This document shows positions 47,970 through 59,804 of a stretch of DNA of 64,000 nt, piece after piece (position 1 is the stretch's first letter; each line of letters begins with the position of its first letter). The DNA is from Nitrospirota bacterium (GTDB lineage: Bacteria > Nitrospirota > UBA9217): the NCBI GenBank assembly GCA_963826885.1, contig CAWGYL010000003.1, positions 598,310-662,309 on the forward strand, given 5' to 3'. The notes beneath the pieces are model-generated. The model had not been told where the DNA came from. It was given only the letters and a program-made list of their open reading frames with translations, and searched no databases. A program made the position numbers and the translations under genes.

Positions 47970-48881
47970 CTAGCGCACGCCAAGCCGTAGCCGAAGCTGC
48001 TCAACAAGCTCTTTTGTCGCTGCCATGTCCTTTATCCTTACCGCTCCAATGACGAACCGTCCGACCGCCTCGGCGAACATATTATCGTATAAGGGATCGA
48101 TCGCTTCGAGTAACACCTGGGACCCGGTGTCGTTCGACCGGATGTCCTTTCCCGACGTGGTTAAATAAGATCGGTACTGGTCCAGGGCCTTGCGCGCTGC
48201 GTCGTGGGAACTCTCCAAAACAACAAAGACCTGGATAGTCTCACCTTTCACCCTGGCTTCGGCAATGAGCCCGCGCCGGAAGAAATCATACCCGAGCAGG
48301 CTCTGGGCAACGTAGCGTTCGCTTTTCTTCACAACTGCCGGGATGAGGAAGGCTTCCAACTCCGTGGGCCGAGCAGACGTCTGTGGAAGGTTCTGCGATA
48401 TGGCCCGGGCGCAGTCTTTGAGCACGGCCAGGGGCGCGCTCACGGCTCCGGTGACCTGGAGACGTACGAAATACTGGTCCTGATAGAAAAAAACCTGGGA
48501 CGATGAGATAGTTCCCTCGGAGCCGATCCGCAGATCCTCATCGTCCTTTCTACGGTAGTTCGCGAACATGCCGAAGGCATCGATGAGCGAGCCCATCCTG
48601 TATACGTCGATATCGAGAGCGACCCTCGGGTCCTGCCTGTTCTCGTACCGTGCGTACGCAAGCTTTTGGAACCCGTAGGGAAAGAAGAGCTCTGATTCTC
48701 CGTCGATGCGGTCGAAAAGCGTATCCTTGTCAAAAAGCGCAACCTTGCCGTCCAGGATCCAGCCCTCCGCGCACGCAGGCACGGGGAAAAACTGTTCCAT
48801 GGAAATTTCTTTTGCCATGGCTGGCATCGGTGTGATCAGCGCGTAAAACAGGACGCAGAAGAAGGTAAGCCTGAGATGCAT
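47970..48881 (-). CDS. Secreted hypothetical protein (first gene of the minus-strand oxidant-defence cluster, counted from its 3' end)
   Basis: GGAGG Shine-Dalgarno before the internal Met at 48881. Signal peptide MHLRLTFFCVLFYALITPMPAMA. 303 aa. Confidence 0.55.
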   Translation of the reverse strand: MHLRLTFFCVLFYALITPMPAMAKEISMEQFFPVPACAEGWILDGKVALFDKDTLFDRIDGESELFFPYGFQKLAYARYENRQDPRVALDIDVYRMGSLIDAFGMFANYRRKDDEDLRIGSEGTISSSQVFFYQDQYFVRLQVTGAVSAPLAVLKDCARAISQNLPQTSARPTELEAFLIPAVVKKSERYVAQSLLGYDFFRRGLIAEARVKGETIQVFVVLESSHDAARKALDQYRSYLTTSGKDIRSNDTGSQVLLEAIDPLYDNMFAEAVGRFVIGAVRIKDMAATKELVEQLRLRLGVR

Positions 48882-48949
48882 GATAGTCCTCCGGACAGAC
48901 GTAGAGTGAAGCGCTCGATCCTGTCTTATCTCGAGCATGTCCCTCGCAG

Positions 48950-50128
48950 CTACCCCAGCAACGCACGCGCCTGCTGCATCTTGGCCGAGATGTTCAGTCC
49001 CTTGACGCAGGACGCGCTGCATGCCGGACAGTCGAGGCACGCGGAAGCGGATGCATCCTGCGGAACCTCACGATAGGTAGAGCGCGCCAGCTCCCTGCTC
49101 CGGTAACCTTCCTCGTACATGAGTGACCGGTTGATGGTGCTGATCTCGACACCCCGGGGGCAGGATCCTTCACAGGTACCGCAGAGGTCACAGTAGAATC
49201 CTGCGATGGCCGCGTGATATCGGTCGAGGATGCGCGCGTCAGCGTTCTTGAAGGGCATGCCCATGACAGCGATGTTCTCCTTGAGCTGGGACAGGTCTTT
49301 CATGCCCGGGATGGACATGGTGATATGCTGGTTCTGGAGCACCCACTTGAGTGCTGCCTGATGCGGACTAATGGAGCCCATGGTGTCTGTCTTGTAGCCC
49401 CCCGCTAAGGTCTTCATCGCGATGATCCCCACGCCCGTCTGCGCGGCCCGCTGGATTGCTTCGCCGATTGATTTATCGCTTTCAAAATTATAGGCTACGA
49501 GACATGTGTCGAAAAACCGGTCCTTGTCGTCGACAAGCGCGTTCAGCACCTCCGGCTGGTTCTTGTGAGTAGTGACCCCGACGAACCGCACCTTGCCCTG
49601 TTCTTTGAGCCTGAGCAGCGCCTCGCGCGTTTCAGGAATGAATATCCTGTCCTTGTCCGTGAGGTTGTGGAGCTGGATCACATCGATGTGGTCTGTCTCG
49701 AGCGTCTTGAGGCTTGTCTCTACGTCGCGGATGATATCCTCCTTGGTCTTCGAGCCCGGAAGCGTCTTGGTCGCCACATACACCCTGTCGCGCCTGCCTT
49801 TCAGGGCCTTAGCCACGATCTCCTCGTTCTTGCCCTCCATGTATTTACGCGCGGTATCAACATAGTTGACGCCGTTGTCAAAGGCGATTTTTAGGACTTC
49901 CGGCTCAGGAACCAGCATGGCGCCGAAGCTTACGACCGTAATCTTGAGACCTGTCCTGCCAAGCGTCCGGTACACGGGTTGGGGAAAGGCGAAGGGACCG
50001 GCTTCCGCATAGTGCTGTACGGCCGCTGCAGCGGGACTCGACGCGATGGCAGCTGCGGCGGTCCCCACGACGCCTGCTTTCAAAAATTCTCTCCGGTTCA
50101 TACCCATGTCATCCCTGTCGTTGCTCAT
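48950..50128 (-). CDS. TAT-exported aldo/keto reductase fused to a C-terminal ferredoxin-like 2x[4Fe-4S] Cys cluster
   Basis: AAGGAGG Shine-Dalgarno. Twin-arginine signal (NRREFLKAGVVGTAAAA). AKR core. C-terminal CDLCGTCEGSCP and CLDCPACSASC motifs. Confidence 0.8.
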   Translation of the reverse strand: MSNDRDDMGMNRREFLKAGVVGTAAAAIASSPAAAAVQHYAEAGPFAFPQPVYRTLGRTGLKITVVSFGAMLVPEPEVLKIAFDNGVNYVDTARKYMEGKNEEIVAKALKGRRDRVYVATKTLPGSKTKEDIIRDVETSLKTLETDHIDVIQLHNLTDKDRIFIPETREALLRLKEQGKVRFVGVTTHKNQPEVLNALVDDKDRFFDTCLVAYNFESDKSIGEAIQRAAQTGVGIIAMKTLAGGYKTDTMGSISPHQAALKWVLQNQHITMSIPGMKDLSQLKENIAVMGMPFKNADARILDRYHAAIAGFYCDLCGTCEGSCPRGVEISTINRSLMYEEGYRSRELARSTYREVPQDASASACLDCPACSASCVKGLNISAKMQQARALLG

Positions 50129-50541
50129 TGATAGCCTCCTTTGCATGAAGGATTCGGAACATGCTGATACGCTGTCGCTATAAAGAAAACCTACCGTAAA
50201 TGCGTAGAAATTTCAAGGGGAATAATTGGCTTGGACCATGACGGTACTATAGCTGTGAAGTGACGCAACAGGTACACCGGGCAGCATTGTGCTTTGCTGT
50301 CTGTCATCTGCAACACTTGAAAAAACAAATCCTAATCTGCTATATTTCAGAATGAAGTAAAGGATTCCAGTTGAAATATGTGCTGGTACATTCTTCCTGT
50401 ATCTCGTAGCAGTTGCATTTCTTGGAAATTGTATGTTTCATGTCGTATCTTACATAATCGTGGATCCAGATGAAAGACCGATCCGTCTTCTGTTTGAGAA
50501 GGCGGACCGGATTCGCCTGTTCATCAAACTTCACTGCCGTC

Positions 50542-58728: not shown

Positions 58729-58885
58729 ACGCAGTCTCTTTCATCTGTATAATCAAAGGATACCATGCAATGGTCACAAAACCATCACGGCAGGATAATA
58801 TGTTGATCACAGGAAAAGGGTAGTACTAAAGCCAAAATTGGTCAGTACTGGTCGTGCGCTTATATTATAACTGAGTGTTTTAAAT

Positions 58886-59080
58886 CTACAAGCGGAACGT
58901 GAAGGTCATTCCGACATTAACCGAACTACGGACCTCGTTTGCGGCTCTCATGGAGTTCGAGGATTTTTTTGGTGAATACAGCCGGGCGGTGTAGAGCGTG
59001 CGCAGGATGTACAGGACGCCGATCAACAAGAACAGCTTGATCGGAACGGCGGCCAGTCTGGTGAAAGGTTTTTTGGACAC
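58886..59080 (-). pseudogene. Internally deleted remnant of a second histidine-kinase gene (N-terminal TM helix fused to the last about 10 codons)
   Basis: MSKKPFTRLAAVPIKLFLLIGVLYILRTLYTARLY... parallels the kinase N-terminus (MFKTLYFKLAAVLVGIFCLIGVLYILLTLYATQMY). ...VNVGMTFTFRL parallels its C-terminus (VNVGTSFTFTL). Confidence 0.5.
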
Positions 59081-59084
59081 GATA

Positions 59085-59804
59085 CTACCCCTTGTCCAGA
59101 TCTGCTGAATCGGAAAGCTTATAGCCGACCCCCCTCACACTCAAAATGTACCGAGGTTGGGCGGGGTTTTCCTCGATTTTGGCCCTGAGGCGGTTGATAT
59201 GGGAATTGACCGTGTGCTCGTAGCCCTCATATTCGTAACCCCAGACTAGATTCAGTAGCTCCTTGCGTGTATTCACCCTTCCGGGGCAATTCATAAAATG
59301 GAGCAACAGGTCAAACTCTTTAGCTGTCAACATCACAGGATTTCCCCGAAGAGTAACCTGCCGCTTTTCAACATCAACCACTAGATCGCCTGTCTGTATC
59401 GTATCGTGCGATTGATGCGCCGCCTCCGACTTAAGCACCTCCACGCGACGGAATAGTGCCTTAACCCGCGACATAAGCTCTCGAATGCCGAATGGCTTTG
59501 TCAGGTAATCGTCTGCTCCGATCTCCAGGCCGAGAACCCGGTCAATCTCGGAAGACCTGGAGGTCAGCATTAAGATGGGAATGTAGGTCGCGGCGGCTCT
59601 CAAACGTCGACAGATCTCCAGCCCGTCCATGCCTGGCAGCATCAGATCTAGAATAATCAGGTCGTGGTTTTTAGAGAGGGCTTGCTCGATACCAGCATTG
59701 CCGTCAAAGGCCAAGTTTACTTCGTATCCTGTATCCCTCAGATGAAGCTCCACAAGATGAGCGATATCTTTATCGTCTTCAATTATAAGAACTCTGCGAG
59801 GCAT
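59085..59804 (-). CDS. OmpR-family response regulator (REC plus winged-helix)
   Basis: REC motifs (DD, phospho-acceptor D in IILDLMLPGMDG, and K). C-terminal OmpR/PhoB-type DNA-binding domain. Confidence 0.9.
   Translation of the reverse strand: MPRRVLIIEDDKDIAHLVELHLRDTGYEVNLAFDGNAGIEQALSKNHDLIILDLMLPGMDGLEICRRLRAAATYIPILMLTSRSSEIDRVLGLEIGADDYLTKPFGIRELMSRVKALFRRVEVLKSEAAHQSHDTIQTGDLVVDVEKRQVTLRGNPVMLTAKEFDLLLHFMNCPGRVNTRKELLNLVWGYEYEGYEHTVNSHINRLRAKIEENPAQPRYILSVRGVGYKLSDSADLDKG

Follow-up and report, generated by a model that had tools for sequence, protein, structure and literature searches.

To our knowledge, sacrificial methionine-rich proteins and the periplasmic methionine sulfoxide reductases (Msr) that accompany them are known from a few Proteobacteria, always together with MsrPQ and an extracytoplasmic function (ECF) sigma factor. 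In Azospira suillum, the small protein MrpX, which has a signal peptide, 20% Met and 44% charged residues, is encoded with YedYZ (MsrPQ) under SigF/NrsF (PMC4436054), and BcrXQP of Brucella stands under BcrS/AbcS (PMC8315932); the two systems have in common the logic of a sacrificial sink and its regeneration. Here we analyze a 64,000-nucleotide (nt) stretch of DNA, hereafter the window, from a Nitrospirota bacterium (GCA_963826885.1, contig CAWGYL010000003.1, positions 598,310-662,309), in which a two-component system is encoded together with a secreted Met-rich protein and an exported MsrA-MsrB fusion (MsrAB). All coordinates given without a locus number are those of the window. On balance we think it probable that the segment 59876-50473 is a self-contained envelope stress cassette directed against periplasmic Met oxidation.

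The original prediction listed nine genes on one strand. Pfam and NCBIfam profile searches of the open reading frame (ORF) translations bear out their order, coordinates and families; all nine, at 47970-59804, lie on the minus strand:

59085-59804, minus: response regulator of the OmpR/PhoB family (Response_reg and Trans_reg_C)
57001-58485, minus: sensor histidine kinase (HAMP, HisKA and HATPase_c)
55426-56526, minus: secreted seven-bladed lactonase-type beta-propeller, the first gene past operator copy 1 (PF10282, 57 bits)
54583-55023, minus: Met-rich secreted protein of 146 amino acids (no family above threshold)
52271-53896, minus: Oxidored_molyb enzyme, a membrane-fused protein of the SUOX fold (PF00174)
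51627-51989, minus: HMA-like membrane-anchored protein of 120 amino acids with a single Cys, Cys58 (no Pfam hit)
50542-51624, minus: exported MsrA-MsrB fusion with a signal peptide (PMSR and SelR)
48950-50146, minus: aldo/keto reductase-ferredoxin (Aldo_ket_red, Fer4 and TAT_signal)
47970-49040, minus: DUF6599 protein (Pfam)

Like MrpX-YedYZ and BcrXQP, the locus combines a small, secreted, charged Met-rich protein with a periplasmic Msr under what would be a dedicated envelope oxidant sensor. It differs from both in having a two-component system, and no sigma factor, in place of the ECF sigma/anti-sigma pair, and a thiol-based MsrAB, with no MsrQ, in place of the molybdoenzyme system MsrPQ. 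Compared with MrpX specifically, the Met-rich protein has 36% instead of 20% Met and lacks a match to TIGR02953, its gene lies outside the reductase operon, and the host belongs to the Nitrospirota rather than the Proteobacteria. A second relative is the HprSR (YedVW/HypVW) system of Escherichia coli, which controls hiuH-msrPQ: in both cases a kinase with a periplasmic loop belongs to the two-component system that governs, or here would govern, a periplasmic Msr, a Met in the two kinases is aligned, and in one gammaproteobacterium the orthologous kinase is found beside msrPQ. The two kinases, however, share only 25% identity and the effector sets differ; the operator of four CGTGA repeats was found in the present analysis. 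The exported, fused MsrAB recalls the ModRS-Trx-CcdA-MsrAB locus of Fusobacterium nucleatum (PMC9239216) and the streptococcal ccdA-tlpA-msrAB genes (PMC11238559), and with the former the locus also shares a neighbouring two-component system, an anaerobic host and a putative role in defence against extracellular oxidants. Unlike these loci, it has no Trx/TlpA or CcdA but an HMA-fold protein with a single cysteine or selenocysteine (Cys/Sec) next to msrAB, and adds the Met-rich protein, the propeller and the SUOX-fold enzyme. What is new, in summary, is the kinase family with its operator, the thiol-based MsrAB, the HMA-fold Cys/Sec protein, the extreme Met content, the additions of propeller and SUOX-fold enzyme, and the phylum; keyword searches of the literature returned no description of this two-component system, its operator or the HMA-like Sec partner.

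In the mechanism that we propose, the kinase would sense through its periplasmic loop, where an invariant Met corresponds in position to the redox-switch Met of HprS, and phosphorylate the OmpR-type regulator, which would bind a 46-nt operator of four CGTGA repeats that replaces the -35 element. Three promoters would thereby be activated: that of the kinase gene (autoregulation), that of the propeller gene with the Met-rich gene behind it, and that of the HMA-like/msrAB pair. The exported Met-rich protein would serve as a sacrificial Met sink for hypochlorous acid (HOCl), chloramines or peroxide, exported MsrAB would reduce the sulfoxides of this and other envelope proteins to Met, and the HMA-fold Cys/Sec protein would serve MsrAB, its most likely part being that of a relay that resolves or reduces the enzyme. 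The same sink-and-repair logic would then have been rebuilt with a two-component system, MsrAB and a more extreme Met-rich protein in the largely uncultivated Nitrospirota and Desulfobacterota.

Extent of the cassette and its operator

Kinase residues 1-250, which include the periplasmic loop, were used as the query to collect 80 orthologous loci from species-representative genomes (loci are cited by number with the prefix L). The closest orthologue, 95% identical, is found in a Nitrospirota metagenome-assembled genome (MAG; L016), and nucleotide synteny with this locus extends from 59876, just 5' of the response regulator gene, to 50473, 69 nt past the msrAB stop codon, with a sharp end on both sides. 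Downstream of msrAB, L016 carries BrnT/BrnA-like ORFs (recognized by eye from the sequence) instead of the aldo/keto reductase (AKR), and neither AKR-ferredoxin nor DUF6599 gave a tblastn match in any of the 80 kinase loci. Because the synteny ends at these points and the two genes are absent from the kinase loci, we take the response regulator and MsrAB as the two ends of the unit; AKR, DUF6599 and the upstream genes for DinB, a short-chain dehydrogenase/reductase (SDR) and a nitroreductase are unrelated neighbours only. Of the system as first outlined, the part from the response regulator to MsrAB stands, whereas AKR-ferredoxin, suggested as a possible periplasmic electron donor, and the DUF6599 protein drop out, neither being preceded by an operator.

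The combination recurs across phyla. Response regulator orthologues (59-92% identical) precede the kinase in related loci, and genes for exported MsrA and/or MsrB follow it on the same strand in 23 of the 63 loci with at least 2 kb of downstream sequence, MsrP in 2 of the same 63. The HMA-like gene is found past the kinase in 18 loci, directly 5' of msrAB or msrB, the propeller in 10, the genus Nitrospira among them, and SUOX-fold enzymes of several subtypes lie near the kinase in 7. Secreted spondin-domain proteins past the kinase in 8 loci from Gammaproteobacteria and other lineages (L058, L040, L051, L075, L076, L079, L080, L088) also appear to belong to the kinase regulon. In the gammaproteobacterium of L058, the genes at 11587-14508 encode a spondin-domain protein, a ResA/TlpA-like redoxin, MsrP (483 bits against a cut-off of 207) and MsrQ (199 against 130). 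A further, independent contig from a metagenome, L006, encodes on one strand a kinase (62% identical), MsrAB (73% identical) and a Met-rich homologue. The ends of that contig carry an inverted, near-identical copy of the response regulator C-terminus (4-183, plus; 4878-5135, minus), which would stem from a second, divergent two-component system or else from chimeric assembly.

A CGTGAC core is present in 23 of 29 kinase-to-effector intergenic regions. The complete operator consists of direct CGTGA-type repeats at 0, +22 and +33 and a degenerate TTTA/GTTA unit at +11, spanning 46 nt in an 11-nt phase, with the consensus tnTCCGTGACcAAcAttTTATcnttCCGTGAccaTncCGTGAcCaT. The window contains two exact instances of CGTGA-N17-CGTGA-N6-CGTGA, each on the gene strand, compared with 0.0 in 100 shuffles. 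A position weight matrix built without L016 identifies three copies; no other position in the window reaches 12 bits, and the highest score among 20 shuffled windows was 9.5:

56910-56955, minus: operator copy 1, 61.6 bits, with -10 hexamer TATACT at 56897-56902; interval between kinase and propeller, predicted promoter of the propeller unit
52104-52149, minus: operator copy 2, 55.6 bits, with -10 hexamer TATCTT at 52091-52096; interval between molybdoenzyme and HMA-like genes, predicted promoter of HMA-like/msrAB
58770-58815, minus: operator copy 3, 45.3 bits, with -10 hexamer TATCCT at 58757-58762; 5' of the kinase gene

A TAnnnT hexamer follows exactly 7 nt past the box in 33 of 44 distinct boxes. 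As this is a PhoB-type layout with the box in place of the -35 element, each box is a predicted promoter toward the gene downstream; the repeats at about one helical turn and the fixed -10 are what would be expected of an activator promoter of the OmpR/PhoB type. Boxes equivalent to copy 3 are present in L016, L017 and L018, and this copy probably serves kinase autoregulation. No full or half box was found in the window before the Met-rich, molybdoenzyme, AKR or response regulator genes. The matrix, which is derived from Nitrospirota, gave no match of at least 10 bits in the alphaproteobacterial loci, L003-L005 or L013-L015, where the specificity of the regulator may have diverged. In genomes that encode this kinase family, the 46-nt operator is usable for regulon prediction.

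The nine genes do not form a single tight operon. Intergenic gaps are 327, 402, 686, 281, 2 and 395 nt, the 2-nt gap between the HMA-like gene and msrAB marking the sole tight pair, and terminator-like hairpins lie downstream of the Met-rich gene and of the molybdoenzyme gene (generic sigma-70 and terminator scans gave counts at background level and were used solely for these two specific hairpins). The former is as follows:

54260-54279, minus: terminator-like hairpin (8 bp, of which 7 are GC, then a T-run), about 300 nt past the Met-rich stop codon

Such wide spacing and internal hairpins are what one would see if unrelated genes had merely come to lie side by side. We give this explanation next to no weight, as the operator stands at three promoters where none is expected, the block is common to relatives, and the association recurs in different phyla. 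A search of the long leaders and gaps against Rfam for riboswitches and small RNAs gave no match at E ≤ 0.1, and there is no tRNA in them.

Between the response regulator and kinase genes lie the remnants of a second two-component system, recognized from ORF translations and internal blastn paralogy:

58886-59080, minus: N-terminal transmembrane segment of a histidine kinase fused to a histidine kinase C-terminus (paralogous to the kinase)
58498-58728, minus: C-terminus of a response regulator (paralogous to the response regulator)

The same remnants are present in L016 (9477-9996), and in the window the intact operator (58815) sits between the two. The arrangement suggests an ancestral tandem of two regulator-kinase pairs with an internal deletion. 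L018 has a further response regulator gene immediately past msrAB, and L016 and L027 are paralogous loci of one MAG.

Sensor kinase and methionine-rich protein

The kinase has two transmembrane helices and a periplasmic loop of about 145 amino acids that contains Met76 in the motif hMlMVvNP. This residue is invariant in 75 of 75 kinase orthologues and aligns with Met72/73 of E. coli HprS, within one residue and depending on the aligner. Met72 and Met153 of HprS have been proposed to form a Met-redox switch for HOCl that is reset by MsrP (bioRxiv 10.1101/2021.09.09.459708). Although the alignment with HprS is full-length, its 25% identity and the score of the response regulator with the HprR model (160 bits against a cut-off of 353) led us to reject HprSR orthology. 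Met76 is consistent with oxidant sensing and no proof of it; a kinase family with an invariant periplasmic Met would extend the idea of a Met-redox switch past E. coli HprS.

The Met-rich ORF is preceded by a ribosome-binding site graded as strong (AAAGGAGG) and starts with a signal peptide, identified by inspection and plausible for the Sec pathway, with cleavage between VQA and DEK. The mature protein contains 42 Met among 118 residues (36%, in agreement with the one-third first estimated) and 44% Lys, Asp and Glu, has no His and no Cys, and is built of two repeats of about 32 amino acids on either side of a central MMMKDGK region. Compared with the orthologues in L016 and L019, nucleotide differences counted by codon position are 4/6/16 and 25/13/47, respectively, third positions predominating, and the alignments are free of gaps over 146 codons; the ORF is under coding selection, and its product is a real protein that is predicted to be exported. 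Close homologues are rare, 8 having been found in 5.8 billion clusters, all with the signal peptide MKKIFVFATV.IST.VLMLSIGVNFAQA. A relation to the MXKDX-type family had been suggested as a check, but no NCBIfam model, TIGR02953 included, matched the window protein at E ≤ 0.01. With DUF6799 (PF20606) it scores 20.8 bits, below the gathering threshold of 26.8, and the distant matches P0009-P0012 carry DUF6799.

The link of this protein to Msr genes and to the operator was examined in other genomes. Homologues occur within the cassette in L016-L019, inside msr units in L103 and L126 (HMA-like, Met-rich, MsrB, MsrA), between a YHS protein and MsrB in L119, and beside kinase, HMA-like or Msr genes in L120; in L109, the Met-rich gene is divergent from HMA-like/msrAB, with one box per direction. 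Among 40 metagenomic loci with a homologue, most of them on contigs of a few kb, 17 have a box or a cassette gene, so that the expected recurrence near msr and cassette genes is found. Secreted ORFs rich in Met, Lys and Asp but unrelated in sequence adjoin the kinase in L026, L041, L052 and L070-L074, the alphaproteobacterial one of L073 reaching 31 bits against the 41-bit MXKDX cut-off; a density of at least 9 Met per 40 amino acids is seen in only 13 of the 9472 ORFs in the kinase loci. The operator lies 98, 127 and 116 nt 5' of the Met-rich ORFs in L026, L041 and L052, respectively, and 265-269 nt 5' of lone Met-rich homologues in L001/L002 (25.5 bits) and L105-L107 (37.8 bits), which have no two-component system or Msr gene nearby. 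Synteny, unrelated analogues and the upstream operators at other loci thus support the assignment of the Met-rich protein to the regulon, and the parallel drawn at the outset with MrpX-YedYZ, of a secreted Met-rich protein tied to exported Msr under a two-component system, is sustained by the recurrence across loci and the shared operator.

The Met-rich protein might, alternatively, be a CpxP-like co-sensor whose oxidation is read by the kinase and reset by MsrAB. In Alphaproteobacteria, where no Msr gene lies less than 9 kb away, an MxKDx ORF is the only consistent follower of the kinase; the gene right past the operator is often a Met-rich ORF, and E. coli MsrP has been proposed to turn HprS off. 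A Met content of 36% and a strong ribosome-binding site, however, suit an abundant, stoichiometric scavenger, the lone operator-bearing Met-rich genes far from any kinase (L001, L105-L107) look like outputs of the regulon, and from many kinase loci a Met-rich ORF is missing altogether, all of which makes the co-sensor quite improbable in our estimate. The alphaproteobacterial MxKDx-repeat ORFs begin about 120 nt past the kinase (L070, 11606-11866; L071, 11606-11857; L073, 5990-6301; L074, 5371-5706).

MsrAB and its HMA-like Cys/Sec companion

The MsrA-MsrB fusion matches PMSR with 212.8 and SelR with 162.5 bits and exceeds the cut-off of NF004042 (337.5 against 330), which places it among the MsrA/MsrB proteins. 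It has the motifs GCFWC in the MsrA part and RYCxN, and in the MsrB part the resolving Cys that is common in such domains is missing (GTGWPSF). Among the companions of exported Msr genes, the HMA-like gene is the most conserved; judged by the 2-nt gap, it is translationally coupled to msrAB.

An alignment of 18 HMA-like orthologues showed a gap at the sole Cys of the window protein, within VNCYDEG. The codon of this residue, Cys58, is an in-frame TGA in 11 of the 18 orthologues and in an extra paralogue in L018, and TGC or TGT in the rest, the window copy (51627-51989) being a Cys form. Every TGA form has kept a GC hairpin of 6-7 bp (GGCCCUGGAAGGGCU) about 20 nt past this codon; in distant Cys forms, the hairpin has degenerated. 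The TGA codons are at the following positions of the respective loci:

L017 12870; L019 12776; L021 11786; L022 11784; L023 13233; L029 10685
L044 3102; L050 12527; L054 11756; L056 2568; L059 12553; L018 14245

Because TGA and Cys codons alternate at this site and the hairpin is kept with the TGA, we interpret the position as a Cys/Sec redox residue with an element resembling a selenocysteine insertion sequence (SECIS). The HMA-like protein is a candidate new selenoprotein family with one Sec (F.VK-U-[YF]DVG), always encoded 5' of exported msrAB or msrB. Its Sec forms are cut short or overlooked by gene callers, database labels are 'hypothetical' or, at JGI, 'CopZ', matches to two NCBIfam selenoprotein families are weak and well under their cut-offs, and a term search of a 2026 review on prokaryotic selenoproteomes did not bring up the family.

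The AlphaFold model has an N-terminal transmembrane helix and a beta-alpha-beta-beta-alpha-beta domain, with a predicted local distance difference test score (pLDDT) of 87-95 and Cys58 at the beta1-alpha1 junction. Foldseek retrieves MerP (1osd; template modelling score normalized to the target, TMt, 0.76; E = 5e-4), ATP7B, HMA7, CCS and CopZ as top matches, while no Pfam family, PF00403 included, is matched and there is no MxCxxC site. The initial description as an HMA-like membrane protein is in keeping with this fold and helix, the Cys/Sec redox residue having been overlooked. With MerP/CopZ and the selenoprotein families NF041115 (UxxU) and NF041383 (VPGUxxT), the protein shares the fold, a reactive residue at beta1-alpha1 and Sec/Cys alternation; it differs from MerP/CopZ and NF041115 in having one Cys/Sec instead of CxxC or UxxU, in its membrane anchor and in its fixed position 5' of exported msrA/msrB. 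Foldseek also aligns it with the N-terminal subdomain of MsrA (PDB 6yev, 2l90), where the Cys/Sec overlays the catalytic Cys; a truncated MsrA N-subdomain was considered and rejected, as hhalign gave E = 0.29.

Since the MsrB part lacks a resolving Cys and no gene for CcdA/DsbD or thioredoxin is found nearby, we consider it reasonable to infer that the HMA-like protein resolves or reduces MsrAB as its partner. A candidate Cys/Sec family next to exported msrAB makes the recycling of Msr without a thioredoxin domain testable. In a bolder version, which we regard as doubtful, the protein would be a dedicated partner that resolves the sulfenic acid of 1-Cys MsrB by a selenenylsulfide relay in place of the Trx/CcdA or DsbD route, and the Met-rich protein would be both the sink and the molecule read by the kinase, closing a loop of sensing, scavenging and repair across several phyla.

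Proteins with a YHS domain, in part selenoproteins, occur in L019 (Cys form, 160 amino acids), L050 and L059. In the latter two cassettes, the YHS selenoprotein genes (NF041384) are at 12713-13021 and 12757-13047, respectively, plus about 170 nt each, the ORFs ending in QYGGY-TGA with an in-frame continuation (AYAVAMG).

Several observations weigh against a cassette for periplasmic Met oxidation. The Met-rich gene of the window has no operator of its own, the nearest being about 1.9 kb upstream past the propeller gene, and the same is true in L016, L017, L018 and L120; its control in the window rests, for this reason, on synteny and on the other loci, and would involve co-transcription with the propeller gene or an unrecognized promoter. 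Met-rich homologues in L003-L005, L013-L015 and about 23 of the 40 metagenomic loci, most of them on short contigs, come without operator or Msr, and the Met-rich ORF of the alphaproteobacterial loci is accompanied neither by an Msr gene in the nearest 9 kb nor by a match to the weight matrix. Neither CcdA/DsbD nor thioredoxin was found among the annotated flanking ORFs, which leaves the recycling of MsrAB unexplained. Finally, HMA and YHS folds, like Met-rich sequences, are typical of copper-handling proteins as well.

This last point raises the alternative of a cassette for copper, silver or soft metals in general, in which the Met-rich protein would be a periplasmic Cu(I)/Ag(I) buffer, the HMA and YHS proteins metallochaperones, and MsrAB the enzyme that keeps the thioethers reduced. 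Beyond the HMA fold, with MerP, ATP7B and CopZ as top structural matches, the YHS-domain (seleno)proteins and the JGI label 'CopZ', the kinase has a CusS-like architecture and matches the heavy-metal sensor model TIGR01386 over its full length (171 bits against a cut-off of 292). CusB- and CusA-like ORFs, assigned from ORF N-termini only, lie 5.8 kb downstream in L052, a molybdoenzyme homologue is found beside Csp and YtkA in L100, and MsrPQ of E. coli is described as shielding CusF under copper stress (PMC9302797). On the other hand, the HMA-like protein has no CxxC, and a single Cys/Sec argues for redox chemistry over bidentate metal binding; the Met-rich protein of the window lacks His and Cys; what recurs past the kinase across phyla is Msr, in the form of MsrAB, MsrB or MsrPQ; the ORF maps, in which no specific search was made for such genes, showed no P-type ATPase, multicopper oxidase or CusCBA; and the characterized Met-rich MXKDX proteins act in HOCl defence. 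We consider a metal cassette unlikely, and defence against periplasmic Met oxidation remains the reading that we prefer.

The molybdoenzyme and the surrounding genes

The molybdoenzyme belongs to the SUOX fold (PF00174, 134 bits against a cut-off of 24), its presumed Mo ligand, Cys309, being invariant in 112 homologues. About 215 hydrophobic residues precede the Oxidored_molyb part. The protein consists of a polytopic N-terminal domain of about 190 amino acids, a conserved internal RRxFL anchor past the membrane domain, and the Mo domain; Mo-co_dimer scores 22.5 bits in the window protein, just below the cut-off of 22.7, and is above threshold in the L017 homologue. The original prediction saw in it an enzyme of the MsrP/YedY type. 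The MsrP model NF003767, however, gives 29.4 bits against a cut-off of 207 (the MsrP of L058, as a positive control, reaches 483), identity to E. coli MsrP is 25% over 171 amino acids, and the best matches are SoxC (107.6 bits, cut-off 420), SorA (89.6, cut-off 600) and, in PDB, SorA 2blf; by sequence, the enzyme is SorA/SoxC-like and not MsrP. With SorA and SoxC it shares the SUOX fold, the Mo-ligand Cys and the dimerization domain (here sub-threshold), and it differs in the added polytopic membrane domain and the lack of a cytochrome partner gene. Equivalence to SorA or SoxC was rejected as well, the scores being far under the cut-offs and no cytochrome partner being encoded in the cassette.

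The haem domain of MsrQ and ferric reductases requires four conserved haem-ligating His. The N-terminal domain (residues 1-230), which had been proposed to stand in for a separate MsrQ, has a single His (H71, 83% conserved) and no Pfam match, PF01794 (Ferric_reduct) included; a fold search of PDB with its seven-helix AlphaFold2 model (pLDDT 78) gave nothing below E = 0.34, cytochrome b561 coming in at E = 3.6 with a TM score of 0.18. We accordingly reject a built-in MsrQ.

Membrane-fused molybdoenzymes of this family are abundant, nearly all of the best 120 matches being about 540 amino acids long with near-full coverage. Three homologues with 68-75% identity lie in unrelated contexts, beside Pirin, beside genes for resistance-nodulation-division (RND) efflux and a cbb3 oxidase, and beside Csp/YtkA, none of them with the operator, and besides the window the enzyme is inside the cassette solely in L016, L018 and L123. 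With no operator directly upstream in the window either, the enzyme cannot be held an obligate member; it and the propeller are accessory members.

These results also bear on the possibility that all nine genes form one system, with the molybdoenzyme as an MsrP with a built-in MsrQ-like domain and AKR-ferredoxin as the electron donor. The genes do share one strand within 12 kb, the AKR has a twin-arginine (TAT) signal and Fer4 motifs, and the SUOX-family enzymes near the kinase in 7 loci would fit. Against this stand the position of AKR and DUF6599 outside the block shared with L016, their absence from the 80 loci and their lack of an operator, the MsrP score, the single His and missing fold match of the N-domain, and the homologues in unrelated, operator-free contexts, and we judge a nine-gene system very improbable.

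Neighbours of the L100 homologue (6359-7711; 75% identical) are the genes for the copper storage protein Csp, for a protein with a YtkA domain and for a MarR regulator, a hint that the role of the enzyme family may be metal-related elsewhere.

The propeller probably starts at the ATG of MNKK, which is preceded by an AAGGAGG ribosome-binding site, and has weak PDB matches to 6-phosphogluconolactonase-like propellers. Its leader (56527-56896, minus), about 370 nt from the predicted promoter to the ATG, is unusually long, is kept in L016-L018 and has no Rfam match. In the 686-nt gap between the Met-rich and molybdoenzyme genes (53897-54582, minus), L018 has the extra Sec-form HMA-like paralogue (14245), and L016 an insertion of about 770 nt.

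The surroundings of the cassette are rich in oxidoreductase and detoxification genes (30415-38379, 42406-43821, 20744-22192, 61941-63925), none of which is syntenic with L016. One flank has two SDRs, a CMD/AhpD-like protein, an NmrA-like protein, a zinc alcohol dehydrogenase, an AKR fragment and an AraC regulator, and the other DinB, an SDR and a nitroreductase; further genes in the surroundings encode a multihaem cytochrome c and a ClC chloride channel. The stretch 44000-48000, which adjoins the AKR/DUF6599 pair, has a GC content of 0.40, compared with about 0.50-0.57 on either side, encodes membrane or lipoprotein ORFs without family assignment, and may be a foreign insertion.

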